From positions 1 through 46,369 of the forward strand of contig JAGHVJ010000019.1 of the NCBI GenBank assembly GCA_018064365.1: a stretch of 46,369 nucleotides of DNA, given 5' to 3'. This document shows positions 1 through 32,213 of this stretch, one piece after another; the stretch's first letter is position 1; every line of letters begins with the position of its first letter. This DNA is from Candidatus Enterousia onthequi (GTDB taxonomy: Bacteria > Pseudomonadota > Alphaproteobacteria > Rs-D84). The notes under the pieces were generated by a model that saw nothing but the letters and a program-made list of their open reading frames with translations, was not told the DNA's origin and did no database searches. Both the position numbers and the translations under genes were made by a program.

Positions 1-2526
1 TATGTCGGATGTTTTGGCAAAACCTGTTAAAGACGTGTTCATATTTTCTGTGGTAACAACAGAATCAGGTAATGCGACTTTTAATTTGTTGTTTTCGTCT
101 AGTAAATCGGATGTTTTGGCGTAATCAGTTAATGTACTGGTTCTGACGAGTGTGTTTGGTAAATTTGCCTCGATATTTCCGGTTGTTATCACCCCAGATG
201 GCAATTTTGTCGCAATTAATTTGCCGTTTTCAAATATATCCGTTGTTTTGGCGAATGTGCCTCCTAATTTGTTGGTTAAATTTTCTGTAGAAACAGAATC
301 CGCAGAGGCGTATAAACCAGATAATTTGTCAGACAATTTAGATTTGGTTAAATCGTTGTCAGTTAGATATGTGTTGCCTAATTTCCCTGATAATCTTTCT
401 GCTGTTAAATCAGAATCTTTTAAGAAATTGTTTAAGTCGGTGCTTTTTGCGTAAATATCTAAATCCGATTTTTTTGCTAGTGTGTTGATGTCGCTGCTGG
501 TTAAATAACCTTTGTTGGATATCGCGGTGTCAATCATTGTGCCCAAGGTTGTTGAGTTCGCCAAAGCAGCATTTACCTTTTCTGCGTCAATTGTTGGTAA
601 ATCATCTTTGGTTGCTAATTTTTTTGCAGATATTTTTGCATCAAAATTGTTGTCAGTAATAACATTTGCTGCTTTTAATTTGTATGCAATGCTATCAGTT
701 GTGTTTTCATCACCGTTTAACAAAGTGTTAAAACTTTGTTTTGTGGCAAAAGTGTCAGCCAATGTTGCACCCAATTTTGCCGCACTTAAATCACTTGTTT
801 TTGCAAAACCGGCGTTCTTTAATTTGTATTCAACAGAATCTGGAACATTGTCAGCACCATCCAGTTTTTCAACAGTAGCTTGTAATGCGGCAACTGTGTC
901 AATAGATGCGACTTTCAAGGCGTTATTGTTGTTTTTGTCTATAATGTTTCTATCTTGTAAATCTTTTGATATTAATTCTTTGACGGCGTTTTCATCAGTG
1001 CCGACCTCGCCTTTTAATGCAAATTTAGAGTCCAAGTTGGCCAATTCTTCTTTTGTGGCAACTTGCAAGTTTTCTTCTGTATTCAAAATACCTTTTTCTT
1101 TTAATTTTGTGGTAACAATATTATTAACTTCTGTGGTATTTGAACCGATTTTCCCGGATAATGTTGATACGGCGTTGTCATTTGCAATGATTTTTGAGGC
1201 GATTTTTTCTGGGGTGATATCGTCTGGTTTTACAAAAGATTCGCCTAATTTTTGTGTTAACTTTTCGGTGTCAATATCATCTTTGGTTGCAAAATTTTTG
1301 TTCGATAATTCTGTTGGAGTGATAAAAACATTGGTTAGTTTGTCCGACAGTGCGGTTGGTGTAATTGCGTCTGGACGAACGTAGATGTTATCAAGTTTAG
1401 AAGATAATGATTCTGGTGTGACATCGGATGCACTTGCAAATCCAGAATTTTTTAATTTGTACGCAATGGAACCAGTTGTATTTTCGTCACCATCTTGAAG
1501 AACGGATACTTTTGTTTTTAACTGAGACACATCGTCTGTGGGGGCGTATTTGGAATCCAATTTGTTTGCCAGGAAATCTGTTGTAATTTCAGATTTTTTT
1601 ATCATTTGTAATTCGTTATTAGAATCGTATATGCCTTTGTTGACCAAATTTTGTGATACCATATCATCAAACACAGATGTGTTTTGTAATGCCGCAGATA
1701 CGGTTTCTGTATTGATAATTGGTAATTCAGATTTTGTCGCAACTTGGAGTTGATTATTTGTGTCAACAATTCCGCGATTTTGTAAATCTGATTTGATTAA
1801 AGTTTTAACTGTATCTTCGTTTGTGCCGATTTTCCCAGATAATGTGGACACAGCATCATCATTTGCAATGATTTTTGATGCAATTTTTTCCGGGGTTACA
1901 TCGTCTTTTTTTGCGAATTTTACAGCCAAAGTGCTTTCCATTTTTTGCGATAATGCAATTGGTTGAATTTCTTCAGAGGTTGCGACTAACAAATTTCCGC
2001 GATTATCTACGATACCTTTTTCAACCAATTTGTCGCTAATTTTTGAATCGATGGCAGAATCTGAAACGACAGTTTCTTGTAAATCTGATATTGCTTCGTT
2101 AAAACTGGTATTTTGTGTTAAATCTGTTGTTTTAACCACGGTTTGTACTGTTGCGGGTAACGTGTTTTCTATTTGTGTTTGTTTTTGAACCAATTCATCG
2201 ATTTGTTGTTGTAAATTTTCTAAATCTTTTGCTGTTGTATGAACTTGTGTTGTTGTGCTTGTGCCTGTGTTGGGATAATAACGATTGATTTTATTTAATG
2301 GGGAAGAAAATGCGATTCGGGATGTGTTGGTATCAATATTGGCGGCGTTGGGTGTTGTTTTTGTGATGCCTGAATCAGGGGTGGTCGATATTGTGGAAAC
2401 CGTGACTTTTGGACTGCTGACGGTTGTTCCACTAGATAACGGGGTCGAACTGGCACGGATGCTGGCCGCGGCCCAGACAGTGCCGCACAATCCACAGAAA
2501 AACGCAAAAAATCCAAATTTTTTCAT
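1..2526 (-). CDS. Secreted fibrous repeat protein, phage-tail-fibre-like; paralog of 2923..6477. Only the N-terminal 842 codons are present and the gene continues past the window start.
   Basis: ATG at 2526..2524 is preceded by the RBS AAGGGGG. My manual translation of this frame stays open to position 1, which explains its absence from the ORF track. The N-terminus MKKFGFFAFFCGLCGTVWA looks like a signal peptide. It is followed by a T/S-rich stretch, a LQQQIDELV coiled-coil-like stretch and many degenerate repeats with [FYL]A[KT][KT][DS]D[LI] and KGI[VL]D..N.L.VATK motifs. The plus-strand track ORFs at 152..1966 are antisense shadows of this frame. Confidence 0.8.
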   Translation of the reverse strand, partial: MKKFGFFAFFCGLCGTVWAAASIRASSTPLSSGTTVSSPKVTVSTISTTPDSGITKTTPNAANIDTNTSRIAFSSPLNKINRYYPNTGTSTTTQVHTTAKDLENLQQQIDELVQKQTQIENTLPATVQTVVKTTDLTQNTSFNEAISDLQETVVSDSAIDSKISDKLVEKGIVDNRGNLLVATSEEIQPIALSQKMESTLAVKFAKKDDVTPEKIASKIIANDDAVSTLSGKIGTNEDTVKTLIKSDLQNRGIVDTNNQLQVATKSELPIINTETVSAALQNTSVFDDMVSQNLVNKGIYDSNNELQMIKKSEITTDFLANKLDSKYAPTDDVSQLKTKVSVLQDGDENTTGSIAYKLKNSGFASASDVTPESLSSKLDNIYVRPDAITPTALSDKLTNVFITPTELSNKNFATKDDIDTEKLTQKLGESFVKPDDITPEKIASKIIANDNAVSTLSGKIGSNTTEVNNIVTTKLKEKGILNTEENLQVATKEELANLDSKFALKGEVGTDENAVKELISKDLQDRNIIDKNNNNALKVASIDTVAALQATVEKLDGADNVPDSVEYKLKNAGFAKTSDLSAAKLGATLADTFATKQSFNTLLNGDENTTDSIAYKLKAANVITDNNFDAKISAKKLATKDDLPTIDAEKVNAALANSTTLGTMIDTAISNKGYLTSSDINTLAKKSDLDIYAKSTDLNNFLKDSDLTAERLSGKLGNTYLTDNDLTKSKLSDKLSGLYASADSVSTENLTNKLGGTFAKTTDIFENGKLIATKLPSGVITTGNIEANLPNTLVRTSTLTDYAKTSDLLDENNKLKVALPDSVVTTENMNTSLTGFAKTSDI
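968..1225 (-). repeat. Module shared with 5300..5557 (inter-paralog repeat)
   Basis: It aligns without gaps at an offset of 4332 nt to 5300..5557, and most positions are identical by eye. Examples are gatattaattctttgacggc and cttttaatgcaaatttagagtcc in both copies. A related copy also occurs at about 1800..1900. Confidence 0.8.
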
Positions 2527-2641
2527 AATTTTCCCCCTTGTGTTTATCGCAAAACAATCCTTTCTTGATATAAATGGTAGAAAAAAACAAATGTTCAAAG
2601 CAAGTGTATTTTTCAGTTTTTTATATGTTTTTTATTGCTTT

Positions 2642-2670
2642 TTGACACTTGGTGAATTAACATTTGAAAA
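2642..2670 (+). promoter_or_regulatory. Putative sigma70 promoter for tRNA-Pro
   Basis: TTGACA (2642..2647), a 17-nt spacer, then TGAAAA (2665..2670). The mature tRNA 5' end lies 7 nt downstream. Confidence 0.35.
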
Positions 2671-2676
2671 TGTTGT

Positions 2677-2753
2677 CGGGGTGTAGCTCAGCCTGGTAGA
2701 GTACTTGCATGGGGTGCAAGGGGTCGCAGGTTCGATTCCTGTCACCCCGACCA
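2677..2753 (+). tRNA. tRNA-Pro (anticodon GGG), CCA encoded
   Basis: I folded the cloverleaf by hand. The acceptor stem is cggggtg/caccccg and the D stem is gctc/gagt. The anticodon stem is cttgc/gcaag with loop a-t-GGG-g-t, giving U33 and G37. The T arm is gcagg-ttcgatt-cctgt, followed by discriminator A and CCA. Confidence 0.93.
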
Positions 2754-2775
2754 GTTCATAAAAAAATAGATATGA

Positions 2776-2832
2776 TAGGGACTTGATGGTGCGCAAACGT
2801 ACTCGCAGGTTCGATTTCTGTCATCCCGACCT
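2776..2832 (+). pseudogene. Decayed tRNA-Pro-like remnant (copy of the tRNA 3' part)
   Basis: 2803..2831 (tcgcaggttcgatttctgtcatcccgacc) matches tRNA positions 2724..2752 at 27 of 29 nt. Weaker similarity extends upstream (tagggacttgatggtgcgcaa versus tagagtacttgcatggggtgcaa). No 5' acceptor strand is present and no 7-nt anticodon loop can form. Confidence 0.7.
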
Positions 2833-2854
2833 GTTTGAAATAAAATTAAAAACA

Positions 2855-2880
2855 AAAAATCGGTAAAAAACCGATTTTTT
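2855..2880. terminator. Bidirectional rho-independent terminator
   Basis: A perfect 10-bp stem aaaaaatcgg/ccgatttttt with a 6-nt loop. A/T runs on both sides serve the tRNA on the plus strand and the fibre gene on the minus strand. Confidence 0.7.
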
Positions 2881-2922
2881 GTTTAGTTAGAAAAGGGTTA
2901 TTATTTCCCAATTATTCCAGAA

Positions 2923-5900
2923 TTATTTTGTTGGCATCAGACATCCTGTGGTAATACACGGTTTTGGCTTGGTGATATTTGTGTTGATTGTTATAGCGCC
3001 ATTGGCAATTGTTAAACCACCATTGTGTATGTAAGTTACAAGGTCATCCATTGTTAGTGCTTCTTCGGCCGCTTTGCTTTTTATCAAAGTGCTTAAACTG
3101 CTGGTAGAGGTTCCACCTAGTTCGGTTTTTAGCGCGTTTATGGCTAAGTTATTTATTTCTGAATCAGTTTTAGCGATTTTCATCACAGAACCTGTATATG
3201 CAGAATCTTCAGACCAACTTAAATTTCCAGTAGTAGAATCAAATACTGGTTTAAATGTTTTTCCATTTGTACCGTCTTTACCAGCGGCGCCTTTGAGGGT
3301 GTCTATGAAGCCTGCACGATATGTGGGTAAAGCCAATGTTGCACCGCTTAATGTGAAACTACCTTTTTGGATTTCTGCTGTTTGCAGTTCATTAAATTTC
3401 TGGTCTGCTTCGGATTCTCCGCCTATCAGGTCAGGATCGGCAGCAACTGCAGCCAAGCATGCGTTCATATCAGTAAAGTATCCCCCCTTGCCTGCTGTGC
3501 TACCTATTTCTATCTTGCCTGCATAATAATCAGAAATGTCTTTGAGTTTAGCGTATGCACGTGTCATTTTTGCAGGTGATAGACGCATAGCCACAGTATT
3601 GTCGTTTTTCCGTGAATGAGCATCGCACCATAAGTCAGCAGCGGATTGTCCGTTTAAGCCATCTTTACCTTTTTCACCATTTTTACCATTTTCACCATCT
3701 TTTCCTTTGAGGGTGTTTATAAAGTTTGTGCGATGGTTGGCCAAATCGATACTGGCTGTTTTTAAGACGAATTTTCCTGATGTTACGTTGCTTAGTTGTG
3801 TCCGATTAAATTCTTGATCGGCTTCGGATTCACCGCCCATCAAGTCTGGGTTAGCAGTGATCGCTGATACACAGGATTCCATGTCTGCGAAAATACCACC
3901 GCCCAGTTTTGTATCGATTGTGATTGCGCCTGCATTTCTTATATTTGTATCAAATACTCTTACCATTTTTGCAGGAGATAAAGCCAAGGTTGGGTTTCCT
4001 TTAATGTGTGCTTCGCACCAAGCGACTATGGCAGATTTTCCATCTTGCCCGTCTTGACCATTTTGACCGTCGGTGCCCGACATAATTTCATTATATTTCT
4101 CTTCACAAGCAGAAACAAAGTTTTGGTTGCTGTTAGTGCCAAAAGTTTTTACGGATAATCTGTCTTTTGTTGTGCTTGCATTTTTCAATGTTTGCATTTT
4201 AGAAGTACCAAATGTGTTAGACAATTTTTGTCCGATGCCAGTTGTTAAATCTAATGCATCAAATTTTTGAACCAAAGACAAACAATATGCACGTGCTCCA
4301 CCCTGGATTGCGTTGTATTCTGAGGAAGTGAAGTTATCGCATGTTTTATTATCGCCGTATAATGGTTTAATAATCGCATCCAAATTAGTGATTGAGGTGT
4401 CTTTTTCGTTTTTTGCCTCGCAATATGCGTGCCATGCAGTTTCGGCGTCTTCGCCGTCGGTACCAGACATGATTTCGCTATACCGTGCCTCACATGCCTC
4501 CATAAATGTTGCATTTGTTTTGATGGAACTGGCCGTAAATCCAGTCAATTTTACTCTGGACTGGGCGTTGGGTGCGCTGTTAAATGCGGTCATCTTGTCA
4601 GATCCAAATGTTGCGACCAATTTTTTACCAATGCCACTGGTTAAATCCAATGGGTTTTGAGTCAAAGATAAACAGTATGCGCGTGCGCCACCCATGATGG
4701 CGTTGTATTGTGCGTAACTAAACTTGGTTGCGTTGGCACAATCAGATAATTGTGTGACAGATGAGTATAATGCCTTTACTATATCCAGATTTTCTTCGCA
4801 ATATTGTTGTTGAACAGATTTTGCAGATATGCCAGGGTCGCCTTTTTCTCCTTTGAAAGGAACGCCATTGTGTTCACATGTATCATCGGTGCAACTGCAA
4901 ATATATAACAATGCGTCGGTTGTGTTATAGTATGCGTGGCTTTGTGTGTTTGTGTTGCATGATGGCAAATCTGATGTTGATGAAACATTTCCTTTGAAGG
5001 AAAATCCAGAGCCGGCTTCACCTTTGTCACCTTTGACAGATTGTAAGAATTCCGAATCGTTTTTTAAAGTATTTGCTATGTCTGTGGCGGATGCAGATTC
5101 GCCGTCCGCGCCTTTTAATGCGTTACGTAAATTGTCGTTATTCTTGATTTTATGTAACAAACTGTCTGGGGTGTCTATATCTCCGTTGATAGTGTTGTCG
5201 AGTTTTTCTACGGTATCTGATAATTCGGCCATTTTTTCGTCTGTGGCGATTGTTAATGTGCCTTGTTCGTTAACAATGCCACGTTCGTATAAATCTTTAG
5301 ATATTAATTCTTTGACGGCAGTTTCATCGGTGCCAACCTCGCCTTTTAATGCAAATTTAGAGTCCAGGTTTGCTATTTCGTCTTTGGTGGCAACTTGCAA
5401 ATTTTCTTCTGGGTTCAAAATACCTTTTTCTTTTAACTTTGCGGTAACAATAGTGTTAACCTCTGTGGCGTTCGGACCAATTTTTCCGGATAATGTAGCG
5501 GTCGCAACGGCATCATCTGCAATAGCGGCGGCGATTGCGGTTGGTGTGATTTCGTCTTTGGTTGCCAGATTTTGTATTGCATCAGAATTAATGAAGTTTT
5601 TTTCGTTTAATGCAGATTCTGTCACATATCCTTTGGCGGTTATTTCTTCAGAAACCATATTTTTAAAGTTTTGTGAGTTACGTAATGCGTTTGTAACCGT
5701 TTCTTCGGACACAACAACCTGTCCTTTCTTTTCAACGTTTAATTCGCCGTCTTTTAATACGCCTACATCGGTCAATTCATTTGTAATGATGTCACGAATT
5801 TCGCTTTCTTTTGGTTGAATACTATTGACTAATGTGGTCGTTGCGTCAGTGTTTGTTACGATTTTTTGAGCCAAGACATCTGGTTCAATGTCGATTTTTT

Positions 5901-6477
5901 TGGCGAAAGTCACTTCGTTATTGGCGTCAAGTATGCCACGAACTTTTAGACGATTGTCGATATCTGAATTTAAAGATTCTGTATAATTGTCTGTTATCTG
6001 TTGTATAGAAGTTAAAGATGTGGATAAGCCTTGGGTTGTAGAACGAATTTCGGAAAGTGTGTCTTTTAAATCACGATTCGTCGTTGTTAAATCAAGGCTT
6101 TTTATTTGTGACTCAACGGTGTTTTCGACATCGTCGCGTGTAATTTGATTTTGTTCCAGTCCCAATTGTGCGCTGCGCAAATCGTTTATTTGTTGTTGTA
6201 ATTCGGCCAAAACAGATGATGAAACATTGCCGCCACCAGAACTTGGAGCAGGAACGACAGTTGTTGGTGTGAATTTTGATAAAGCAGAAGGTCGCGTTGT
6301 ATTATTGGAAGTTGTCTTCGTTGTGGATGTAGTCAAAATAGTGTTTCCGGATGCGGGTTTGATAGTGTTATTTGTCATGCTGATAGAGCCAGCACGAACG
6401 GTTGGCTGTAAAGCATTAGCAACAGAATATATTGTGGCACATATAAAAGCGACAAGTAAACGAATATGACGTAGCAT
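2923..6477 (-). CDS. Secreted fibre protein (1184 aa) with tail-fibre-like repeats, collagen-like G-X-Y tracts and duplicated Cys-containing globular domains
   Basis: This is track ORF 2923..6528. I prefer the internal ATG at 6477, which has the RBS GAGGGG and yields MLRHIRLLVAFICATIYSVANA, a signal peptide. G-X-Y tracts include GKDGENGKNGEKGKDGLNGQS and GTDGQNGQDGQDGKS. A GFSFKGNV...YICSC...FKGEKGDPG knob-like segment is present. Confidence 0.85.
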   Translation of the reverse strand: MLRHIRLLVAFICATIYSVANALQPTVRAGSISMTNNTIKPASGNTILTTSTTKTTSNNTTRPSALSKFTPTTVVPAPSSGGGNVSSSVLAELQQQINDLRSAQLGLEQNQITRDDVENTVESQIKSLDLTTTNRDLKDTLSEIRSTTQGLSTSLTSIQQITDNYTESLNSDIDNRLKVRGILDANNEVTFAKKIDIEPDVLAQKIVTNTDATTTLVNSIQPKESEIRDIITNELTDVGVLKDGELNVEKKGQVVVSEETVTNALRNSQNFKNMVSEEITAKGYVTESALNEKNFINSDAIQNLATKDEITPTAIAAAIADDAVATATLSGKIGPNATEVNTIVTAKLKEKGILNPEENLQVATKDEIANLDSKFALKGEVGTDETAVKELISKDLYERGIVNEQGTLTIATDEKMAELSDTVEKLDNTINGDIDTPDSLLHKIKNNDNLRNALKGADGESASATDIANTLKNDSEFLQSVKGDKGEAGSGFSFKGNVSSTSDLPSCNTNTQSHAYYNTTDALLYICSCTDDTCEHNGVPFKGEKGDPGISAKSVQQQYCEENLDIVKALYSSVTQLSDCANATKFSYAQYNAIMGGARAYCLSLTQNPLDLTSGIGKKLVATFGSDKMTAFNSAPNAQSRVKLTGFTASSIKTNATFMEACEARYSEIMSGTDGEDAETAWHAYCEAKNEKDTSITNLDAIIKPLYGDNKTCDNFTSSEYNAIQGGARAYCLSLVQKFDALDLTTGIGQKLSNTFGTSKMQTLKNASTTKDRLSVKTFGTNSNQNFVSACEEKYNEIMSGTDGQNGQDGQDGKSAIVAWCEAHIKGNPTLALSPAKMVRVFDTNIRNAGAITIDTKLGGGIFADMESCVSAITANPDLMGGESEADQEFNRTQLSNVTSGKFVLKTASIDLANHRTNFINTLKGKDGENGKNGEKGKDGLNGQSAADLWCDAHSRKNDNTVAMRLSPAKMTRAYAKLKDISDYYAGKIEIGSTAGKGGYFTDMNACLAAVAADPDLIGGESEADQKFNELQTAEIQKGSFTLSGATLALPTYRAGFIDTLKGAAGKDGTNGKTFKPVFDSTTGNLSWSEDSAYTGSVMKIAKTDSEINNLAINALKTELGGTSTSSLSTLIKSKAAEEALTMDDLVTYIHNGGLTIANGAITINTNITKPKPCITTGCLMPTK
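5300..5557 (-). repeat. Module shared with 968..1225 (inter-paralog repeat)
   Basis: See 968..1225. In both proteins it encodes ...DAVATATLSGKIGPNATEVNTIVTAKLKEKGILNPEENLQVATKDEIANLDSKFALKGEVGTDETAVKELISKD-like sequence. Confidence 0.8.
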
Positions 6478-6556
6478 GATTTTTCCCCTCTGGTTTATAA
6501 AAGTCCTTTCTTGAAAAAAGTTTAGCAAAAATAAAAAAAATCACGCAAGGACTTTT

Positions 6557-6988
6557 TTAGTTTTTTTTGCATGTTTGGTCAATTGAGTCTGAGATGTGCT
6601 GAAACATTGCACGTTTGCGTGCGGAATTTTTTGCACAAGGGTCGCAAGACGAACGTACATCCCCCATTTTACATATAAATTTTTGTCCGTTGCAATTGCC
6701 GGTTGTTCTGACGGGAACAATTCTGTTGGCATAATTTTGTTCCATTTCTAGGTAGTGTTTTGGTATTTCGTGTGGGCGATTTTGCCAGATAGCGGTTGTT
6801 TTGTCTGCTGTTGTGCGTTGGCAAATTTTGTTTGACCGTGTGTGTTGCATGGTAATTTTGTCGTTGATTGATGCTTCTCGATTATTGGCAGTAATTAAAA
6901 CCCAAACAACCAAAACGGTACATAATGTTGCTACAATGAATAATAACATGTAATGCGCAACAGAAAAAGCAGATGGTGTGTCGTTCAT
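6557..6988 (-). CDS. Hypothetical membrane-anchored small protein (143 aa)
   Basis: The RBS AAGGAG lies 8 nt upstream of the ATG. The N-terminus has a hydrophobic helix (HYMLLFIVATLCTVLVVWVLI) and the C-terminus carries several Cys. I recognise no family. It sits directly upstream of, and co-directional with, the fibre gene. Confidence 0.55.
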   Translation of the reverse strand: MNDTPSAFSVAHYMLLFIVATLCTVLVVWVLITANNREASINDKITMQHTRSNKICQRTTADKTTAIWQNRPHEIPKHYLEMEQNYANRIVPVRTTGNCNGQKFICKMGDVRSSCDPCAKNSARKRAMFQHISDSIDQTCKKN

Positions 6989-7139: not shown

Positions 7140-8027
7140 ATGTTTGTTACCGAAAAATTAAAAACATTTTCTTGGATAAATGTTGGCAATCCTGATCATG
7201 ATGATTTTGAAAGATTGCAATCCGAGTACAAGATTGATGAAGATAATATTATCGATATTTTAGACCCTGATGAACAGCCTCGATTGGAAATAGAAGATGA
7301 TTACAAGGTCATTATTGTGCGATTCCCTATCATAAACCATGAAAACGATACTTTGTGGCATACAGAGCCTTTATCAATTATTTATTCGCCAAATCGTGTA
7401 ATTACTATATGTAGAAAACGTTGTGATTTGTTGGATAAGATTAAAAAGGATGAAAAAACCTCTCGCGAGGATTTTGTCTTGAATATTTTATTTTATATTG
7501 CCGAGTCTTATTTGCGCTTTTTGAAAGAGTTAAATAAACGGGTTTTGGCAACTAAAAAAGTTTTGCAGCAAAGTGTTTCGAAATACGATTTAATGGCGTT
7601 GTTAGAGGTTGAGAACAGTTATACTTTGTATATGAGTGGTATCAAAGGAAATGTTTCTGTGTTGGATAAATTGGAAAAAATGCGCGGTTTTATCAAGACG
7701 GATGATGCGCAAGAGTTGTCCGAAGATGTTAGGATAGAACTTGGTCAGGCTATCGAGGTTGTGACAAGTTATAGTAAAATGTTAAAATCTATTAAAGAAA
7801 CCTTTGAAAGTATTATAAATATGGAATCTAACCGATATATTAATCGGTTGACAATGTGGAATATTATTTTGGTGATTCCTACGGTGATTGTTGGCTTTTA
7901 TGGTATGAATGTTTCTTTGCCGTTTGCTGAGTATTCTTTTACGGCAATAGGTATATTTGTTGTGATAATTTTGTTGTTGGTTGGTTTTGCGTGTTTTAGT
8001 TGGATAAAGTCTAAAAAATTACGTTAA
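7140..8027 (+). CDS. corA: CorA-family magnesium/cobalt transporter
   Basis: The YGMN motif (GFYGMNVSLPF) lies between two C-terminal TM helices. The length of 295 aa and the soluble acidic N-terminal domain are typical of the family. Confidence 0.85.
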   Translation: MFVTEKLKTFSWINVGNPDHDDFERLQSEYKIDEDNIIDILDPDEQPRLEIEDDYKVIIVRFPIINHENDTLWHTEPLSIIYSPNRVITICRKRCDLLDKIKKDEKTSREDFVLNILFYIAESYLRFLKELNKRVLATKKVLQQSVSKYDLMALLEVENSYTLYMSGIKGNVSVLDKLEKMRGFIKTDDAQELSEDVRIELGQAIEVVTSYSKMLKSIKETFESIINMESNRYINRLTMWNIILVIPTVIVGFYGMNVSLPFAEYSFTAIGIFVVIILLLVGFACFSWIKSKKLR

Positions 8028-8062: not shown

Positions 8063-9772
8063 TTACATTTTGCTCGGGATTATCAGCCCCATTAAATTTG
8101 TTGCAGTCGTCAATGTGTCACGGGCGAGTTTGGTTATGTGCAGACGTGTTTCTTGTATTTTGTTGTCCAGGTCGTCACGCAATATTGGACTACTATGATA
8201 AAACGCGTTTATTAGTTGGCACAGGTTGTAGGCATAGTTGGCAATCATATCTGTTGCTCGATTTTCGTATGCAGATTGGATTGTTTTGTCAAAATCCATG
8301 ATTGCTAATAACAAATTTCGTTCGTCTTTGTTTATATTTACATTGTGTAGATGCGGTGTGATATTTGCTTTGTTTAATACGGTGTTTAGACGTACGGCGG
8401 TATACAATATGTATGGGCCTGTTTTTCCTTCGAAACTTGTAACGGCATCTGGGTCGAATATGTAGTCTGAACGCAAATCGTGTATTAAATCGTTAAATTT
8501 TAACGCGGCGATGGCGATTGTGTCGATTGTGTTGTCGTCTAGTTCTTTGTTGTTTTCGATTGCGCGAGCGCGAACGGCGTCGGTTATGATTTGGATAATA
8601 TCATCCAAATCGGCGGCGTTGCCGCTGCGGGTTTTAAATGGTTTTCCGTCAGCACCATTGATTGTTCCGTATCCAATGTGTTCGAGGTTTTTTGTGTCAA
8701 AAAGACCGGTAAGTTCGGCGATTCTGAATAGTTGTTCAAAGTGCAAAGATTGTCTTGAATCAGTAAGATATATTATTTTGTTCGGGTTATCTGTTAACTT
8801 TCTATAATATATCGCCATAATGTCTGTTGCGTCGTATGTTGTTGCGCCGCGAGAGTTGTGAAACATCACCGGCGGCATTGGTGCGGTATCTGTGTCTTTT
8901 TTTACAACAACAATTTCGGCACCGTCGCTTTCTTGTAACAGGTTTTTATCACGTAGTAATTTTTCAACAGGCGCTTCGTAAAGCGCTGCATTTTTTTCGC
9001 CTAAGTCGTTGTCAAAAGGCAAAATGTTTAATTTTTTAATTGTGTCATGCATTGACTTTAATGATATAGGCATAAAAATATTGTACAATGCATTATAACC
9101 TGGATGGCCCTGTTGTAATTCAGCGGTGATTGTATGAACGGTGTCCATAAATTTTTCGTCTTGTTTTGCCAATGCTGCGGCCTGGGGATAAAATGTATTT
9201 AATTCGGATGGTTCAAAAGTGTACCGAGATAAATCCATAGTGCTATCAAAATTGTCTTGAAAAAAAGGCCAATCTGGATGGATGCGTTTTATCCATGCGA
9301 TCACCATCCCCATAGAACGTCCCCAATCACCTATGTGGTTATAAGAAATTGTTTTGTGTCCCATAAAACGAAATATTCTGTTTAATGTATCGCCAACAAT
9401 AGATGTGCGAAGATGCCCGATATGCAGCGATTTGGCAACGTTATATGCACCATAATCCATGTCTATAACCAATGGCTTGTCTGTTGTTTGTGGTTGTGGT
9501 GCTGTCGCATTTTCCAAGATAAAATTATTGCGGATTTTTATATTGATAAAGCCAGGTCCCGCAATTTCGGCAGATTCTATAAAATCTAATTCTTGGATTT
9601 TTGGTAAGATTTCTCCGGCCAGTTCGCGCGGATTTTTATGTGCTAATTTTGCACCAATCATTGCTGCGTTCGTCGAAAAATCGCCAAAATCACGATTTCG
9701 TGGTGTTTCCAAATTTGCGGCAAAGCCCAATTTTTCGTTTATTGCATCTGATACATATTTATACAAATTCAT
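8063..9772 (-). CDS. argS: Arginine--tRNA ligase
   Basis: Class I HIGH motif (SLHIGHLRTSIVGD), an ArgS-type N-terminal domain (ETPRNRDFGDFSTNAAM), and the protein ends in Met as ArgS proteins typically do. Confidence 0.95.
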   Translation of the reverse strand: MNLYKYVSDAINEKLGFAANLETPRNRDFGDFSTNAAMIGAKLAHKNPRELAGEILPKIQELDFIESAEIAGPGFINIKIRNNFILENATAPQPQTTDKPLVIDMDYGAYNVAKSLHIGHLRTSIVGDTLNRIFRFMGHKTISYNHIGDWGRSMGMVIAWIKRIHPDWPFFQDNFDSTMDLSRYTFEPSELNTFYPQAAALAKQDEKFMDTVHTITAELQQGHPGYNALYNIFMPISLKSMHDTIKKLNILPFDNDLGEKNAALYEAPVEKLLRDKNLLQESDGAEIVVVKKDTDTAPMPPVMFHNSRGATTYDATDIMAIYYRKLTDNPNKIIYLTDSRQSLHFEQLFRIAELTGLFDTKNLEHIGYGTINGADGKPFKTRSGNAADLDDIIQIITDAVRARAIENNKELDDNTIDTIAIAALKFNDLIHDLRSDYIFDPDAVTSFEGKTGPYILYTAVRLNTVLNKANITPHLHNVNINKDERNLLLAIMDFDKTIQSAYENRATDMIANYAYNLCQLINAFYHSSPILRDDLDNKIQETRLHITKLARDTLTTATNLMGLIIPSKM

Positions 9773-17975: not shown

Positions 17976-20900
17976 TTGAAAACTTTATTCCGTATTTTTA
18001 ATGTAATGTTTTTTTCTGCGGCATTAGTGTTTGCTGTGGTGCCAATGGCATTTGCGGCTGGTTCTTGTCCAGGTAGTTTTTTTGATTATGAAAATAAAGA
18101 GTGGATACAAGATTATACTTGTGAAGATGTTGGGCAAAATTTGATTGGAGAAGGTTTTGACCACAATGTACTGACCGATGGTTGTTCGTGTATGTGCGAT
18201 CCATTTGATGCTGCGTTTAATCCTGTGGCGGCTAATGCTTGTATAAAAGGTGAAATTGATGCGTGTGCAGATGTTTGTATTCCACTAGATCTGCCGTGTG
18301 ATTATGGCCAACGTCCATACGTCGTGGATGGCATTGCGCAATGTGGATATTATTTTGACCCAGAGTTTGGTTTGATAGATTATTATGGTAGTCAGAGATG
18401 GCGTGAATTTTTGGATGTTAATGGAATGTCTGCGGGTTATATGTCACCGACCGGTGAACTGTTGCCTTGTGATGGTGATGGAGTAAAAGAAGCTGGGGAT
18501 GGCACAGGTCGGTGTGTTTGTGCTGATGGTGGTTGGTTCTTGATGGATGGTGGTGTTTGTGTTCAAGAATTACCAGTGGATTTGATGTTGGACCCAGAAG
18601 GGACACAAAATTATGCTAATTTGAAGCTCGATTTTTGGCATAATCCGTTTAATTTAGCGAATGAAGGTTATGGTTTGCCGGATGGTGGTGCCGGGTTGAC
18701 ACTGGACCAGATTATGGACATGGTTAATGGTCAAGGCACACAAATGTTTGATCATCATGGCGAATGGACATATACCCCGATGGGTACTGGAACACAGTAT
18801 ATTTATAAATCTATCCCGTTGGTTGGTTATCCTGTGTATTCAGGAACGTCGGCACCTGTGGTTGTTAAAGTCAATTTAGATTTTCAGGGCGGAAATTCGA
18901 GTTGGTCTGAATTTTACTATGTTTATGGTCGTACTACGCCTGGGCCTTTTTTTAATAGTAGTAGTGTGCAGACTCCTATAAACAATTCTGTTATTAACAA
19001 ACCAACTCGTACAGGATATACTTTTGGTGGATATTACACCAGCACGAATGGAAATGGACAGCAATATGTTGATGAAAATGGTGTAATTAGTAACAATTTG
19101 GTCTATTACACAAGTACTACGCCCTTGACACTGTATGCGAAATGGACCCCGAATACATATACTATTAGTTATAATTTAAATAGTGGGACGCATGGGGCGA
19201 GCCATCCAACTTCTGCAACATATGACACATCTTTTACCGTGAGTAATCCTACGCGTTCCGGATATACATTTTCTGGTTGGAAAATCACAGGGATGGATAG
19301 CGTGACACATACGTATGGCAATAGTACCACCGCATCTAATTCAATTTCTTCAACAACTGCAACAACGTTTAAGAATCTTCGTTCAACCAGTGGGACTGTC
19401 ACATTTACAGCACAATGGACACAAAACATTCCTACGTGTTATCAGATTCATTTTGATAATGCTACTAATGGCGGTAGTGGTGGTACGACTGATATTTGGT
19501 TGTATAGAAATTCGAGTAATTTGAGTGATAGCAAAAATTGTAAAATTTATAGTGATAGTGCTTGTACTAATGTGATAACCAGTATAACCCCACCAACAAA
19601 ATTGAATGGATTTTATATTGGTCAGTATTCTGTAACAGGTGTAAATGCAGAAAGTCCTTATAATGAAGGTTGGTTCGATACAGGAGGCGGTTCACATATT
19701 GCTGAAGACAGAAATTATTGTAATAACACCACTAATACCAGCGGTTATTTCAATGATTTGGATTATACATATGGTTTTCAAGGAAATCAAAGCCCAGCGA
19801 TTACTTTGCGTGCACTGTTTGAGTGTACACCGGGTTATTATAATAATTCAGACAACAGATGTTTGGCCAATACCGTTGTATTAGATTGGCAAGAAAGTGG
19901 TGGAAACAGTATTCCTGATGGTTCATGTACGTATGGTGGAAATTTGGTTTTGCCATCGGCACCGTCACGTTCAGGCTATACTTTTACAGGCTGGCGGTTA
20001 GCAGATGGAACAATGGCAAATGCTGGTACAACAATAACTGGTGGATGTGTTGTTGGTTATACTAATGCATATAATGGGACATCGGCTGCTATTACTGCGC
20101 AATGGTCTCAAGGCACCTACACCGTATCGTTTAATGCTAATGGTGGAACCGGCGGACAATCGGCAAATGTATCTGCGACATATGGTTCAGCCATGCCGAC
20201 AATCAGTACAACCGCCCCAACCCGTACTGGATACACATTTGATGGTTGGTATGACAGTGTGAGTTTGCCGTCTGGATATAAGAAATTGGAATATATTGCA
20301 AAGAACAATGCGTCGCAATATATACAGACTGATTATGTTGGAAATTTGAATTCCAGATACGAAGGTGCTGTTCTTCTTACTAATAATACTGACGCTTATG
20401 ATATAGCAAGTCGTGTTAACGCCTCTGGCAATACAAGGAATATTGCGTTTGCATGTTCTGGCAGTACTTCTTATATCGGTTATGGAACGTATATTTCTGC
20501 TGCAACGAATAGACACCAGTGTGTTTTGAATGACAGAATGGATTTTGTGACGGATTATTTAAATAGACAGTGGTCTGTGTCTATTGGTAATTCAACAAGC
20601 ACAAAACAAATGTCTTCTGATGCGATAACCAGTTTTACAAATACAGCACCGTTACAAATATTTTTTAATCGTGTGGCTGGAGCCACCAGTACCGCCAGTT
20701 ATGCTGCGCCAATAGGTACCAGAATTTATTATTTGAAAATTTATGAAAATAATAATTTAGTTCATCATTTTGTTCCCGCTAAACGCAGTAGTGATAATGC
20801 GATTGGTGTCTATGATGTTGTAGAAAATGAATTTTTGACAAATGCTATTGCAAATACAGGTTCGTTTACTGCGGGACCGGAAACAAATCTTGAAGTAAAA

Positions 20901-23285
20901 TATTATAATGCAAATGGAACCAGTGCCAAAAATTGGGATAAAACCGCAAATACAACACTGTATGCACGTTGGACTGCAAAAACATATACAGTATCATTTA
21001 ATGCCAATGGGGGAACAGGTGGACAAACAGCAGATGTAACCGCGACATATGGGGCGGCAATGCCGACATTGGGGGCAAACTCGGCTCCGACACGTACAGG
21101 ATATTATCTTGTTGGATGGTATGATAAAAGTGATTATACCGCCAGTGGTGCAATGCAGTATTATAATGCAAATGGTACAAGTGCGCACAATTGGGATAAA
21201 ACCGCAAATACTACATTATATGCAGGATGGGATGGGATAAAGTATATGATAACTTTGGATGACGAGGCTAATGGCGGAACCAGTGGTTCTGGTAGTGTAA
21301 TACAAAAATATGCGTCAAGATGGACGACGAATGACAATGCCCAGACAACGATAACAAGTGTGAATATACCCAAAAGAACAAACAGTATATTTAATGGGTA
21401 TTATAGTGCAAAAACAAATGGCACTCAGCATATCCCTGCCACTGGTGTTTTACCAGCCAACACAACATTTACAGACGATACGACATTGTATGCGCAATTT
21501 AGCAGTTGCCAATGTTCTGCGGGAACGGGGGTAGATACGTGCACAACAAGTTCTACGACTTCTAATACATGTACGGCAACCGCAACGTGTAAAGTGGGTT
21601 ATGAAGAACCGGTTGCGTCATGTACTGGGGCGAATTGTACAAGTAGTTGTACACCGCAAAAGTATACGATATCAATAAAACCTAATGGTGGAAAAATAAA
21701 TGATTCTGTGAATAATTTCGAGTTTTATGAGTTATATAATACGGAATTTAGAGATTTGACCGGTACCAATGTCCTGACGGATATTCCGGTTGCTGTGCGT
21801 GATGGATATAGTTTGACAGGATATTTTACAGCAAGCACTGGCGGCACACTTAAGATTGGGTCAGACGGACTGTTGCCGGTACCATCGACTTTTATGGGGG
21901 ATACAACACTGTATGCCCAGTGGGCGCAAGATGTTATTACTTGTACAGCTGGAAACTATTTGCCGGCGAATTCCACATCGTGCGCCACATGTCCAGCCGG
22001 ATATTATTGTCCAAACACAGGCAATTATGTACAATCTTCATCAAACCAGGGAATTGTTTCTTGTGCGTCTGGAAAAATCACAGAAACGGCTGGGTCAACC
22101 AGTGCGTCGCAGTGTAAAAGTCCTGAGTTTAGCATGACGACAACATCGCTTGCGGCAGGGACTGTGTTTTCATTTACTATGTCTGCCCAGGGTAATTTTG
22201 TGATTGATTGGGGCGATGGTAATATTCAACAAATAACCCGTACAAATACAACCGACACTACATATTCGCACACATATACAACCGCCGGGACATATACCAT
22301 CGGCCTGTCTGGTCAGGCAACGGGATATAATACCAATACAGCGATCGCAGCGATTAGTTTTAGCGGTAATACAAATATTGCAGGGATATCTGGTTCTCTG
22401 GGTGCGGTATTTGGAACATTGTCGTCTGGTACAAACAAACAACCAAGATTTTATCAAACATTTGCTAACTGTAGTAATTTAACAGGTTCAATTCCATCAG
22501 GTTTGTTTAGTGGAATATCTGGTGCACCAGTTAATCAGTTGTTTGCTTACACGTTTGCTGATTGTAGTGGTTTAACAGGTTCAATCCCAGAAAATTTATT
22601 CAGTGGTGTATCTGGGCCATTAACTAATTATTTGTTCACTGGTACGTTTATGGGATGTAGCGGTTTAACCGGATTTGTACCACAAAATTTATTTGATGGT
22701 TTTACAAAAACAAGTGCTTCTGCCCCGATGTATCATGTGTTTAATGGTACTGGACTTGCCACAGCATGTCCAGCGGGATATTATCAATATATAACTGGGT
22801 TCGAGGCTGATTTTAACAGCAAAGTGGCGTGTACACCATGTCCGACTGGATATACATCTGGTGTTGGGGCAACAGCGAACACAGGGTGTTATTTAACGGT
22901 AGATGGTGGTCAGGTAAGAGACGGAACATCGGGAACAACATTATCAACCTGTGCAGCAGGAACATATAAAACATCGCACAATGAATATTATGGAACAAGT
23001 TATAGTTGTGATACATGTCCGACGACTAATCCGTACAGTCCCGCAGGGGCGGCGGATGCTGGGGCGTGTGGACGCAAGTTGCATATTGGGGATAATGTGA
23101 TGTATTTGCGTTCTACACAAAAGACAACACCTTCGTTAAAGTTCGATTTTAACAAGGATGGTGTGGCTGATTTGTTCGGAAATATGTCAACAAGTTCGAA
23201 AAAAATGTCCAGCGGTGTGGATAAATCTTTTAAAGTCAATTATGGTGGTCAAGTGTATTACATACACGATGATACTGTGCAATAA
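17976..23285 (+). CDS. Giant mosaic secreted/surface protein (1769 aa) combining Cys-rich N-terminus, Listeria/Bacteroides (InlB B-repeat/Flg_new-type) repeats, a nested jelly-roll-like domain, a PKD-like signature, BspA-like LRRs and ephrin-receptor/VSP-like Cys modules
   Basis: TTG start preceded by the RBS GAAGGTAGGA, with signal peptide MKTLFRIFNVMFFSAALVFAVVPMAFA. It contains repeated YTVSFNANGGTGGQ...APTRTGYTF.GWY...TLYA.W units. Other signatures are IDWGDG...YSHTYTTAGTYTI, FANCSNLTGSIPSGLFSG / FADCSGLTGSIPENLFSG / FMGCSGLTGFVPQNLF, and CATCPAGYYCP / CTPCPTGY. Confidence 0.9.
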   Translation: MKTLFRIFNVMFFSAALVFAVVPMAFAAGSCPGSFFDYENKEWIQDYTCEDVGQNLIGEGFDHNVLTDGCSCMCDPFDAAFNPVAANACIKGEIDACADVCIPLDLPCDYGQRPYVVDGIAQCGYYFDPEFGLIDYYGSQRWREFLDVNGMSAGYMSPTGELLPCDGDGVKEAGDGTGRCVCADGGWFLMDGGVCVQELPVDLMLDPEGTQNYANLKLDFWHNPFNLANEGYGLPDGGAGLTLDQIMDMVNGQGTQMFDHHGEWTYTPMGTGTQYIYKSIPLVGYPVYSGTSAPVVVKVNLDFQGGNSSWSEFYYVYGRTTPGPFFNSSSVQTPINNSVINKPTRTGYTFGGYYTSTNGNGQQYVDENGVISNNLVYYTSTTPLTLYAKWTPNTYTISYNLNSGTHGASHPTSATYDTSFTVSNPTRSGYTFSGWKITGMDSVTHTYGNSTTASNSISSTTATTFKNLRSTSGTVTFTAQWTQNIPTCYQIHFDNATNGGSGGTTDIWLYRNSSNLSDSKNCKIYSDSACTNVITSITPPTKLNGFYIGQYSVTGVNAESPYNEGWFDTGGGSHIAEDRNYCNNTTNTSGYFNDLDYTYGFQGNQSPAITLRALFECTPGYYNNSDNRCLANTVVLDWQESGGNSIPDGSCTYGGNLVLPSAPSRSGYTFTGWRLADGTMANAGTTITGGCVVGYTNAYNGTSAAITAQWSQGTYTVSFNANGGTGGQSANVSATYGSAMPTISTTAPTRTGYTFDGWYDSVSLPSGYKKLEYIAKNNASQYIQTDYVGNLNSRYEGAVLLTNNTDAYDIASRVNASGNTRNIAFACSGSTSYIGYGTYISAATNRHQCVLNDRMDFVTDYLNRQWSVSIGNSTSTKQMSSDAITSFTNTAPLQIFFNRVAGATSTASYAAPIGTRIYYLKIYENNNLVHHFVPAKRSSDNAIGVYDVVENEFLTNAIANTGSFTAGPETNLEVKYYNANGTSAKNWDKTANTTLYARWTAKTYTVSFNANGGTGGQTADVTATYGAAMPTLGANSAPTRTGYYLVGWYDKSDYTASGAMQYYNANGTSAHNWDKTANTTLYAGWDGIKYMITLDDEANGGTSGSGSVIQKYASRWTTNDNAQTTITSVNIPKRTNSIFNGYYSAKTNGTQHIPATGVLPANTTFTDDTTLYAQFSSCQCSAGTGVDTCTTSSTTSNTCTATATCKVGYEEPVASCTGANCTSSCTPQKYTISIKPNGGKINDSVNNFEFYELYNTEFRDLTGTNVLTDIPVAVRDGYSLTGYFTASTGGTLKIGSDGLLPVPSTFMGDTTLYAQWAQDVITCTAGNYLPANSTSCATCPAGYYCPNTGNYVQSSSNQGIVSCASGKITETAGSTSASQCKSPEFSMTTTSLAAGTVFSFTMSAQGNFVIDWGDGNIQQITRTNTTDTTYSHTYTTAGTYTIGLSGQATGYNTNTAIAAISFSGNTNIAGISGSLGAVFGTLSSGTNKQPRFYQTFANCSNLTGSIPSGLFSGISGAPVNQLFAYTFADCSGLTGSIPENLFSGVSGPLTNYLFTGTFMGCSGLTGFVPQNLFDGFTKTSASAPMYHVFNGTGLATACPAGYYQYITGFEADFNSKVACTPCPTGYTSGVGATANTGCYLTVDGGQVRDGTSGTTLSTCAAGTYKTSHNEYYGTSYSCDTCPTTNPYSPAGAADAGACGRKLHIGDNVMYLRSTQKTTPSLKFDFNKDGVADLFGNMSTSSKKMSSGVDKSFKVNYGGQVYYIHDDTVQ

Positions 23286-31086: not shown

Positions 31087-31578
31087 ATGAAAAAATTATT
31101 AGCGTTTGTATTTGGTATATTTGGCGCAACAAATGTGTTTGCCAATCCTGCTTGTGCGGTTTGCACGGTGGCAATTGGCGCGACATTGACAATTTCGCGC
31201 AAATTGGGCGTATGCGACAATGCGGTTGCTGTTTGGTTGGGTGCGTTTTTGGTTATATTGGGATATTGGGCAATAAAATGGTTCGACAATCGCAATTGGC
31301 ACTTTTTTGGTCGTAATGCGGTTTTGATGTTATTATCTTTTTCTACGATTGGAACATTGTATATAAGCCAGTTAAAATACCAGCCGTGTTATTGGATAAT
31401 CGACGCGTTTTTACTGTGGGCAATAGTTGGCGGTGTGGTATATGTGTTATCGCAAAAGTTATACGAATTTATGAAACAAAAAAATAATAATCATGCACAC
31501 TTTCCTTTTGAAAAGGTTGTGATGGCGCTCGGTATGTTATTTATCACCAGTTTCATAGTTTCAAAATTTGCAATGTAA
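31087..31578 (+). CDS. Hypothetical polytopic membrane protein with a CAVC motif after the first hydrophobic segment
   Basis: RBS AAGGAAAG. The sequence MKKLLAFVFGIFGATNVFANPACAVCTVAIGA is followed by three to four hydrophobic helices. Function unknown. Confidence 0.7.
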   Translation: MKKLLAFVFGIFGATNVFANPACAVCTVAIGATLTISRKLGVCDNAVAVWLGAFLVILGYWAIKWFDNRNWHFFGRNAVLMLLSFSTIGTLYISQLKYQPCYWIIDAFLLWAIVGGVVYVLSQKLYEFMKQKNNNHAHFPFEKVVMALGMLFITSFIVSKFAM

Positions 31579-31598
31579 ATAAAAAGAAAGGAAATGAT

Positions 31599-32213
31599 AT
31601 GAAAAAAGATATGAAAAAATTGACTATGCAGGAAATGATTGAAAAAGTTGACGCTGCAAAGAAAGCCAACCCGTTAGATTTGTCTTCGGACCAAGATTTA
31701 TCTATCGCTCTGATGAATTTGATTTCATTAGAAGAACATTTCTTTTTCAGTGGTGCAAAAACTCAAAAGACCGGTTTTTATGATTTGTTGAATACCGTTC
31801 GTTCTATGCGTAAAGAATTGATGGAACGTATTGTCGATAAATCTTCGGTCGAAGGTGGCGAAGTATGGTGCATTTCAAAACATTTGTTGGCGGCTTCTAT
31901 GCGTTTGATGGAGGTTGGAACCAAGGCATTGGGTGCTGGAAACAAGAAAGATGCGACCCAAATGTTTGAAAAAGCATATGATTTATATTCTTTGTTTTGG
32001 GGATTAAATATGCACCTAATTGATTTGGATGGTGTGCATGAATCTGTGCCGGCATTTTATGATGGTGCGGTCGCGGCGTGCAAAATGGATACACCAAAAA
32101 AATCAGCCAAAGAAAAATCTGTTGCAGCTGCGAATAATACCGATGGCGAAAAGTCAACAGTTAAACGTTTGGGTCAATGGGTTAAAAAGGCGGTAAATTG
32201 TTGCATTGAATAA
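31599..32213 (+). CDS. Hypothetical soluble helical protein (204 aa) ending in ...KKAVNCCIE
   Basis: RBS AAAGGAAA. A conserved-looking core reads LISLEEHFFFSGAKT...GEVWCISKHLLAASMRLMEVG...YDLYSLFWGLN. Function unknown. Confidence 0.7.
   Translation: MKKDMKKLTMQEMIEKVDAAKKANPLDLSSDQDLSIALMNLISLEEHFFFSGAKTQKTGFYDLLNTVRSMRKELMERIVDKSSVEGGEVWCISKHLLAASMRLMEVGTKALGAGNKKDATQMFEKAYDLYSLFWGLNMHLIDLDGVHESVPAFYDGAVAACKMDTPKKSAKEKSVAAANNTDGEKSTVKRLGQWVKKAVNCCIE

Follow-up and report, generated by a model that had tools for sequence, protein, structure and literature searches.

Lcl of Legionella pneumophila, an adhesin that is secreted by the type II system and binds glycosaminoglycans, is built from a signal peptide, an N-terminal coiled coil through which the protein re-attaches to the cell, a collagen stalk and a globular head that is trimeric (PMC11162425). 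Streptococcus Scl1 and Scl2, Bacillus BclA and the prophage-encoded collagen-like proteins of E. coli (PMC3368898) are trimeric fibers in which G-X-Y triplets are combined with globular trimerization or binding domains, and within this group the phage and the cell versions have modules in common. In phage tail fibers and minor tail proteins (PHROG 3904, 15437 and 819; Erwinia phage PhiEaH1, mycobacteriophages) short collagen-like connectors are placed between globular modules, while fibrillar adhesins are recognized by their great length, variable tandem domain repeats and rapid strain-to-strain variation. Here we describe two tandem paralogous genes, gene 1 and gene 2, found on the minus strand of a stretch of 46,369 nucleotides (the window; contig JAGHVJ010000019.1 of assembly GCA_018064365.1, Candidatus Enterousia onthequi). 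This pair probably encodes lineage-specific, Sec-exported fibers of the envelope or surface, most likely homotrimeric, of an uncultured gut/rumen alphaproteobacterium.

A literature search on the host clade yielded nothing useful on surface structures, and there are no cultured or experimentally studied relatives among the retrieved genomes of these gut/rumen alphaproteobacteria. The locus is a conserved and easily recognized pair of candidate surface fibers built from domain families that are absent from the databases.

Domain organization of the two proteins

The two genes are paralogues (BLASTP E-value 4e-47, with 25-39% identity across the N-terminal ~450 residues), and both proteins display the common layout proposed in a preliminary description made from the DNA sequence alone: a signal peptide, a Thr/Ser-rich spacer, the motif LQQQI(D/N)(E/D)L (LQQQIDEL in gene 1, LQQQINDL in gene 2) and a long array of repeats (Table 1). 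The hairpin motif of the KGI(V/L)D..N.L.VATK.E type recurs in both, as had been noticed, with 4-5 copies per protein. A second repeat motif, [FYL]A[KT][KT][DS]D[LI], had also been attributed to both; it is abundant in gene 1 (6 strict and 11 loose copies, against a shuffle mean of 0.01) but gene 2 has no strict copy, the only similar segments being FAKKIDI and LATKDEI. The 5' leaders of the two genes (2527-2600 and 6478-6530, minus strand) have a common TCAAGAAAGGA...GGGGAAAA(T/A)T(C)ATG layout, which suggests that the duplication took in the ribosome-binding and regulatory region.

The module layout was obtained from hidden Markov models (HMMs) of the gene 2 modules, iterated over the family. 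In residues 85-480 of the gene 2 protein, the AlphaFold2 model built with the family alignment predicts long helices followed by helix-helix-hairpin repeats, here named Nrep (mean predicted local distance difference test score, pLDDT, of 68). The model of the C-terminal part (residues 440-1184, mean pLDDT 67) showed compact, mostly helical A and B modules, with pLDDT values of ~70-89 over most of A and 60-87 over B, and a knob folded as a small β unit. The G-X-Y tracts, the Cys-containing domains and the G-X-Y-flanked FSFKG knob reported for this protein were all recovered. Five G-X-Y tracts of 3, 3, 5, 7 and 4 triplets are present; across the family, 78 of the 87 tracts lie at module borders and the longest one has seven triplets. 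The mature gene 2 protein contains 18 Cys residues, with an even count in each module. On the strength of the G-X-Y tracts and of the homology of the knob, the gene 2 protein would be a homotrimer.

The architecture can be read as the following pathway. Both proteins would be exported by the Sec system, with the signal peptide removed after an A-x-A sequence. The mature N-terminus, [TS][VI]RA[GS]S..., and a second motif, to judge from their conservation, may then hold the fiber at the envelope, making the N-terminus its conserved, cell-proximal end. The Thr/Ser linker, the coiled coil and the helix-hairpin repeats would form the stalk, as the AlphaFold2 models suggest with moderate confidence. 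In gene 2, the G-X-Y triple-helix connectors and the tail-fiber-type knob would keep the three chains in register, and the disulfide-bonded A, B and C-terminal modules would constitute the distal, variable end of a putative trimer, which probably binds a ligand. Such fibers would diversify through changes in module copy number and short gene conversions between the paralogues, two processes that are observed in the family.

Module variation and gene conversion

Members of the family differ in their modules, with 1-8 A domains, 1-2 knobs, 1-2 B domains and optional Cys-rich repeats at the C-terminus, and the full-length ones contain 2-13 Nrep copies. The nearest strain differs from the window by a duplication of 32 residues directly before the knob. 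Between the window and its nearest relative, divergence is highest in the B domains, with 87% identity compared to 95-100% elsewhere.

The two genes share a block of 258 nucleotides that had been described as aligning without gaps, and the alignment was reproduced, with 205 of the 258 positions identical (79%). Identity is unevenly distributed along the block, being ~58-65% in the gene-proximal third (plus-strand positions 1140-1225) and ~84-91% in the remainder (plus-strand positions 968-1139). Every genome examined has a patch of this kind, 99-207 nucleotides long and with 78-93% identity between the paralogues, at a position that differs by lineage. The patch of the window is 88% identical to its own paralogue versus 72% to an orthologue. 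This excess of identity to the own paralogue over an orthologue, in patches that are specific to each lineage, indicates recurrent gene conversion. Five short contigs break in the shared patch or just past it (L002, L003, L005 and L006 after 380 codons, L004 after 422; related contigs are numbered with the prefix L), as would be the case for assembly breaks induced by repeats.

Predicted export and location of the fibers

In both signal peptides a basic n-region precedes a hydrophobic core of 12-15 residues, and positions -3 and -1 are occupied by small residues. The N-termini resemble cleavable signals, and the Sec-type pattern is kept in ~40 family members. Cleavage would thus be expected in both proteins, and their export fits the conserved signals and the even Cys counts of the modules. 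The residues that follow the predicted cleavage site are almost invariant (LQPTVRAGS(I/L)S in the gene 2 type, ASIRASS in the gene 1 type); the motif of gene 2 is 62-100% identical in orthologues with flanking regions that are 23-68% identical. About 30 residues further on, gene 2-type proteins display a second conserved motif, (N/S)RGSALSKF, and the linker around it varies freely. The N-terminal motifs correspond to no known sorting signal, and the first one was not found in the selected other open reading frames (ORFs) of the window that were searched for it.

An ORF of 143 codons lies immediately 5' of gene 2 and keeps this place in each of the 13 related loci that have gene calls; searches of Pfam and NCBIfam gave no match for it. 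Its product has a membrane helix at the N-terminus and a Cys-rich tail (C-x7-C ... C-x2-C). This protein may be a partner of the fibers.

Several observations weigh against trimeric fibers displayed on the cell surface. No outer-membrane translocation or anchoring device (β-barrel, two-partner secretion (TPS) domain or known sorting signal) was identified in the two proteins, so that the fibers may be periplasmic rather than surface-exposed. Cleavage of the signal peptides is a prediction read from the sequence itself. The G-X-Y tracts of gene 2 are short, with 3-7 triplets, and Pfam Collagen (PF01391) scores 11.5 bits on this protein, under the cut-off of 27.2 bits; gene 1 has no G-X-Y tracts that would point to its oligomeric state. 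The AlphaFold2 models are monomeric and of moderate confidence (mean pLDDT 67-68), and neither protein contains a ligand-binding domain of known type.

Fibers that are exported by the Sec system and then retained in the periplasm, or at the inner surface of the outer membrane, with a structural or spacing role, would agree with the combination of a Sec signal and no recognizable outer-membrane translocation domain or C-terminal sorting signal. In that case peptidoglycan or a membrane partner could be the target of the N-terminal motif, and the conserved membrane protein encoded directly upstream would find a place as well. However, the changes in module number, the strain-level insertions and deletions and the gene conversion are what is typically seen when exposed proteins face diversifying pressure, and an extended fiber of 1000 to >3000 residues would far exceed the width of the periplasm. 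In addition, bacterial collagen-like proteins of established location, such as Lcl, are on the surface or extracellular. A periplasmic site is therefore a serious option but an unlikely one, and surface exposure of the fibers is inferred.

Going beyond surface fibers as such, the mature N-terminus and the second motif could be an undescribed sorting or anchoring signal that ties giant trimeric fibers to the envelope. The 143-residue protein might belong to the same apparatus, and the whole would be a new system of outer-surface display, made of undescribed domains and a tail-fiber knob and serving attachment to host or partner cells. This proposal is speculative and, in our opinion, unlikely.

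The knob and its phage relatives

An exhaustive HMMER scan of 1.84 billion representative proteins produced only 89 matches, about fifty of which belong to the family and align with its N-terminal, A, B or C-terminal modules. The complete proteins are 1032 to 3365 residues long, and many of the shorter matches are fragments cut by contig ends. Nearly all other matches are confined to residues ~430-560 (the G-X-Y/knob/G-X-Y module and the segment preceding it) or to G-X-Y tracts. When ten matches outside the core family were compared with PHROGs and Pfam, seven were strong phage tail-fiber proteins (PHROG 3904, 15437 or 819, with E-values down to 1e-221, one of them also matching Tail_spike_N and Fibritin_C) and the other three were weak.

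The knob module of gene 2 itself matches PHROG 3904 (E-value 2e-9) and PHROG 15437 (5e-8), and by tblastn it retrieves 177 phage records annotated as tail fiber, minor tail or collagen-like protein. This similarity is not due to the collagen-like flanks, since the 52-residue knob core without them still aligns to phage tail-fiber proteins through a clear common motif, G.G[IF].[FI].G.V.t...LP....G.AY.....D.LLYI....[FW]P....G.pF.G.kG. The bacterial knob has four Cys residues, versus none or one in the aligned phage copies. It is missing from gene 1 in the window and from its 1515-residue orthologue; some gene 1-type orthologues elsewhere have one.

Outside this module the searches were negative. 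With the two whole proteins as queries, PHROG matches fall only within the knob and the G-X-Y tracts; the N-terminal 450 residues of both have no PHROG or Pfam match. Searches by tblastn of 50,697 phage genomes gave no match for the N-terminal repeats, the A1/A2, B1 and C-terminal domains of gene 2 or the long repeats of gene 1, and pattern scans of IMG/VR (protein and alignment), which have limited sensitivity, detected no relatives. No Pfam family scored above its gathering threshold in the two proteins or in five long relatives, and sequence searches of the PDB with single sequences and with the family profile gave no match. Foldseek, run on the C-terminal model against the PDB and BFVD and on the N-terminal model against the PDB, gave nothing at E <= 0.001, the recurring weak matches being only ~75-residue stretches of phage fiber or collagen proteins.

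The preliminary description had interpreted the pair as domesticated tail-fiber modules. On this view a captured prophage tail-fiber gene would have gained a signal peptide and been retained by the cell as a fiber of its own. The PHROG, tblastn and HMMER matches of the knob, its core motif conserved independently of the G-X-Y flanks, and att-like copies of a tRNA 3' end beside tRNA-Pro, which imply a site used by mobile elements, are in line with this interpretation, and the knob module of gene 2 is indeed homologous to its phage counterparts. Yet this part covers ~70 of 1184 residues (~6%) and is absent from gene 1 in the window, so that the notion of a domesticated tail fiber was overstated: the remainder of gene 2 and the whole of gene 1 have no relatives in the phage genomes searched or in the IMG/VR scans. 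Neither protein has a recognizable tail-attachment domain and both have Sec-type signals, the locus is syntenic over species whose orthologues are ~38% identical, and an exchange of modules in either direction would account equally well for the common knob. Wholesale domestication is thus distinctly unlikely, and the data are better described by a clade-specific family of cellular fibers with one promiscuous trimer module common to phages, whichever the direction of transfer.

Conservation of the locus

Related contigs were reached through the corA neighbor. A search of public assemblies for the exact gene 2 sequence, with either start codon, gave no match. The closest locus retrieved, L001 (GCA_024402795.1, 'Alphaproteobacteria bacterium'), has a gene 2 orthologue 92-94% identical and a gene 1 orthologue 96% identical to those of the window. 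The latter, 1515 residues long, has three Cys-rich repeats at its C-terminus; acpS comes next, and no phage genes are present. These repeats (L001 742-1500, minus strand; tandem, ~75 residues each, C..YWN....C..CP.GT.....C.C) resemble furin/EGF-like modules and have no Pfam match; they also end some gene 2-type orthologues in other metagenome-assembled genomes.

The order argS-corA-143-residue ORF-gene 2-tRNA-Pro-gene 1-acpS, followed by an unannotated gene of the 700-residue class and gcrA, is found in L001, L007, L010 and L011, and L009 has the same order from argS up to gene 1, where the contig ends. From argS to acpS it holds for all retrieved related contigs of sufficient length to reveal it. 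Syntenic orthologues are from 92% down to ~38% identical. The tRNA-Pro(GGG) lies between the paralogues in nine of the ten loci scanned for tRNAs, the tenth contig ending too early, and the idea that relatives keep the pair at tRNA-Pro was thus borne out. In L012 the tRNA-Pro is inverted relative to the fiber genes. A prepilin-peptidase-like gene occurs near the fiber locus in relatives. None of the neighbors in the window, L001 or L007-L011 is a phage gene (capsid, terminase, baseplate or integrase), and housekeeping genes make up the remainder of the window (SecA, DnaE, DnaK, RsmH, L25, PFK, TolQ/R/A), with a two-component system close by. In view of this synteny and of the housekeeping surroundings, the earlier statement that the genes lie outside any prophage, flanked by a tRNA, corA and argS, is right, also for the region past position 1 as seen in L001, and the pair is old and fixed in the lineage.

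In addition to the degenerate tRNA-Pro copy of the window (Table 1), partial direct copies of the tRNA-Pro 3' end were observed in L001 (5572-5596), L009 (15250-15274) and L016 (12086-12190). They are 80-260 nucleotides from the intact tRNA and enclose no genes, and they have the appearance of att scars left behind by earlier integrations and excisions. Together with the location of the tRNA between the two genes, these copies could be taken as a sign of recently acquired accessory genes, carried as cargo of a genomic island at tRNA-Pro. This origin is very improbable: the repeats stand close to the tRNA and enclose no gene, synteny of the two genes and of their flanks on either side is kept in every informative locus, no integrase is present, and the GC content (36-42%) is similar to that of the remaining window. 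The island was rejected on the grounds of the conserved synteny.

Membership of a known class of Gram-negative adhesins (trimeric autotransporter, TpsA, RTX adhesin or chaperone-usher pilus), which the long, repetitive and possibly trimeric proteins with a signal peptide might recall, is hardly credible and was rejected because no defining domain is present: the Pfam results leave no YadA anchor, stalk or head and no TPS or RTX domain, the PDB profile search and Foldseek were negative, and the C-termini are Cys-rich or globular, not β-barrels.

Features of the locus and other open reading frames

The coordinates of the pair, its modules and its flanks are collected in Table 1.

Table 1. Features of the fiber locus, in window coordinates.
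Feature	Position	Strand	Remarks
Gene 2, complete coding sequence	2923..6477	-	1184 residues plus stop from ATG; alternative TTG start at 6528 gives 1201 residues
Gene 2 signal peptide	6412..6477	-	Residues 1-22, MLRHIRLLVAFICATIYSVANA|LQP; predicted from sequence, hydropathy and family conservation
Near-invariant mature N-terminal motif, gene 2	6373..6411	-	Residues 23-35, LQPTVRAGSISMT; candidate anchoring or sorting motif
Thr/Ser-rich linker, gene 2	6214..6372	-	Residues 36-88
Coiled-coil-like helical segment, gene 2	5938..6213	-	Residues 89-180, including LQQQINDL; long helices in AlphaFold2 model at residues 87-179
Nrep array, gene 2	5113..5937	-	Helix-helix-hairpin repeats of ~55 residues; 4 HMM copies at residues 165-419, overlapping the end of the helical segment
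258-nucleotide shared block, gene 2 copy	5300..5557	-	Gene-conversion patch
G-X-Y/knob/G-X-Y module	4825..5031	-	Residues 483-551, FSFKG knob; sole part with phage tail-fiber relatives
A1 domain	4447..4818	-	Residues 554-677, helical, 4 Cys
A2 domain	4063..4440	-	Residues 680-805, helical, 4 Cys
G-X-Y connector	4033..4077	-	Residues 801-815, 5 triplets
B1 domain	3703..4035	-	Residues 815-925, 2 Cys
G-X-Y connector	3643..3705	-	Residues 925-945, 7 triplets; tandem repeat of period 9/18 at 3659-3708
B2 domain	3289..3645	-	Residues 945-1063, 2 Cys
G-X-Y connector and C-terminal domain	2926..3291	-	Residues 1063-1184 (4 triplets; domain 1073-1184), C-x4-C loop at the end
Intrinsic-terminator-like hairpin	2850..2884	-	15 pairs and T run, directly 3' of gene 2
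Degenerate copy of tRNA-Pro 3' half	2803..2846	+	84%; att-like scar
tRNA-Pro(GGG)	2677..2753	+	Between the gene 1 and gene 2 paralogues
Gene 1, N-terminal 842 residues	1..2526	-	Cut by the left edge of the window; full orthologue of 1515 residues
Gene 1 signal peptide	2470..2526	-	Residues 1-19, MKKFGFFAFFCGLCGTVWA|AAS; predicted
Gene 1 parts			Signal peptide, ASIRASS motif, Thr/Ser linker, LQQQIDEL coiled coil, Nrep repeats, (Y/F)AK(T/K)(S/T)D(L/I) repeats
258-nucleotide shared block, gene 1 copy	968..1225	-	
143-residue ORF	6557..6988	-	Directly upstream of gene 2, same strand
corA	7140-8027	+	
argS	8063-9772	-	

A search of the other ORFs of the window for modules of the fiber family found none. 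Some of these ORFs are large or orphan. An orphan Cys-rich ORF of 796 codons (32268-34658, plus strand) has a clear signal peptide that resembles that of gene 2 (MIKHLRYIL...), an N-terminal region rich in Arg, Ala, Ser and Thr, and no Pfam match; the next one, of 479 codons (34531-35970, plus strand), is an orphan as well, Cys-rich, with an internal hydrophobic stretch and no Pfam match. Neither contains a fiber-family module. Adjoining tolQRA, a protein of 1769 residues (17976-23285, plus strand) has a signal peptide, a Cys-rich N-terminus and Listeria-Bacteroides repeats (TIGR02543/Flg_new); it is large, exported and variable in length, its counterpart in L001 having 2431 residues. After rsmH (mraW), a position usually taken by ftsL and ftsI, there are two ORFs of 163 (multi-pass membrane protein, CxxC) and 204 codons (31087-32213, plus strand) without a family match.

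Comparison with described fibers

The Nrep, A, B and C-terminal domains and the N-terminal motif make up an undescribed family, while a modular, exported, collagen-linked fiber with modules shared with phages is of a known kind. In function the proteins would resemble a fibrillar or collagen-like adhesin. The locus is a clean case of a trimer-forming knob common to phage tail fibers and an exported cellular protein, and of tandem paralogues that swap short patches by gene conversion. If surface-exposed, the fibers would probably help to determine host or partner specificity and might also serve as phage receptors, and their conserved N-terminal motif may represent an anchoring signal of a new type.

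With the phage tail fibers and minor tail proteins cited above, gene 2 has in common the knob motif and the short connectors between globular modules. Unlike them, gene 1 and gene 2 lie outside a phage, have Sec signals and are devoid of a tail-attachment domain, and phage relatives are lacking for more than 90% of gene 2 and for the whole of gene 1. Compared to Scl1, Scl2 and BclA, gene 2 has neither LPXTG nor exosporium anchoring, its Collagen score is sub-threshold and its globular domains are unrelated. The family resembles the fibrillar adhesins in great length, variable tandem repeats and rapid variation between strains; the known stalk and adhesive domains and the recognized anchor of those proteins are absent here, where the N-terminal motif is a candidate anchor. 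In the case of Lcl no likeness in sequence or fold was detected, and its long unbroken collagen region with one head differs from the G-X-Y tracts of gene 2, which have 3-7 triplets and separate many modules. Nevertheless, Lcl comes from a Gram-negative host and follows the same logic from the N- to the C-terminus, and by analogy it would be the closest functional counterpart of these fibers among Gram-negatives.

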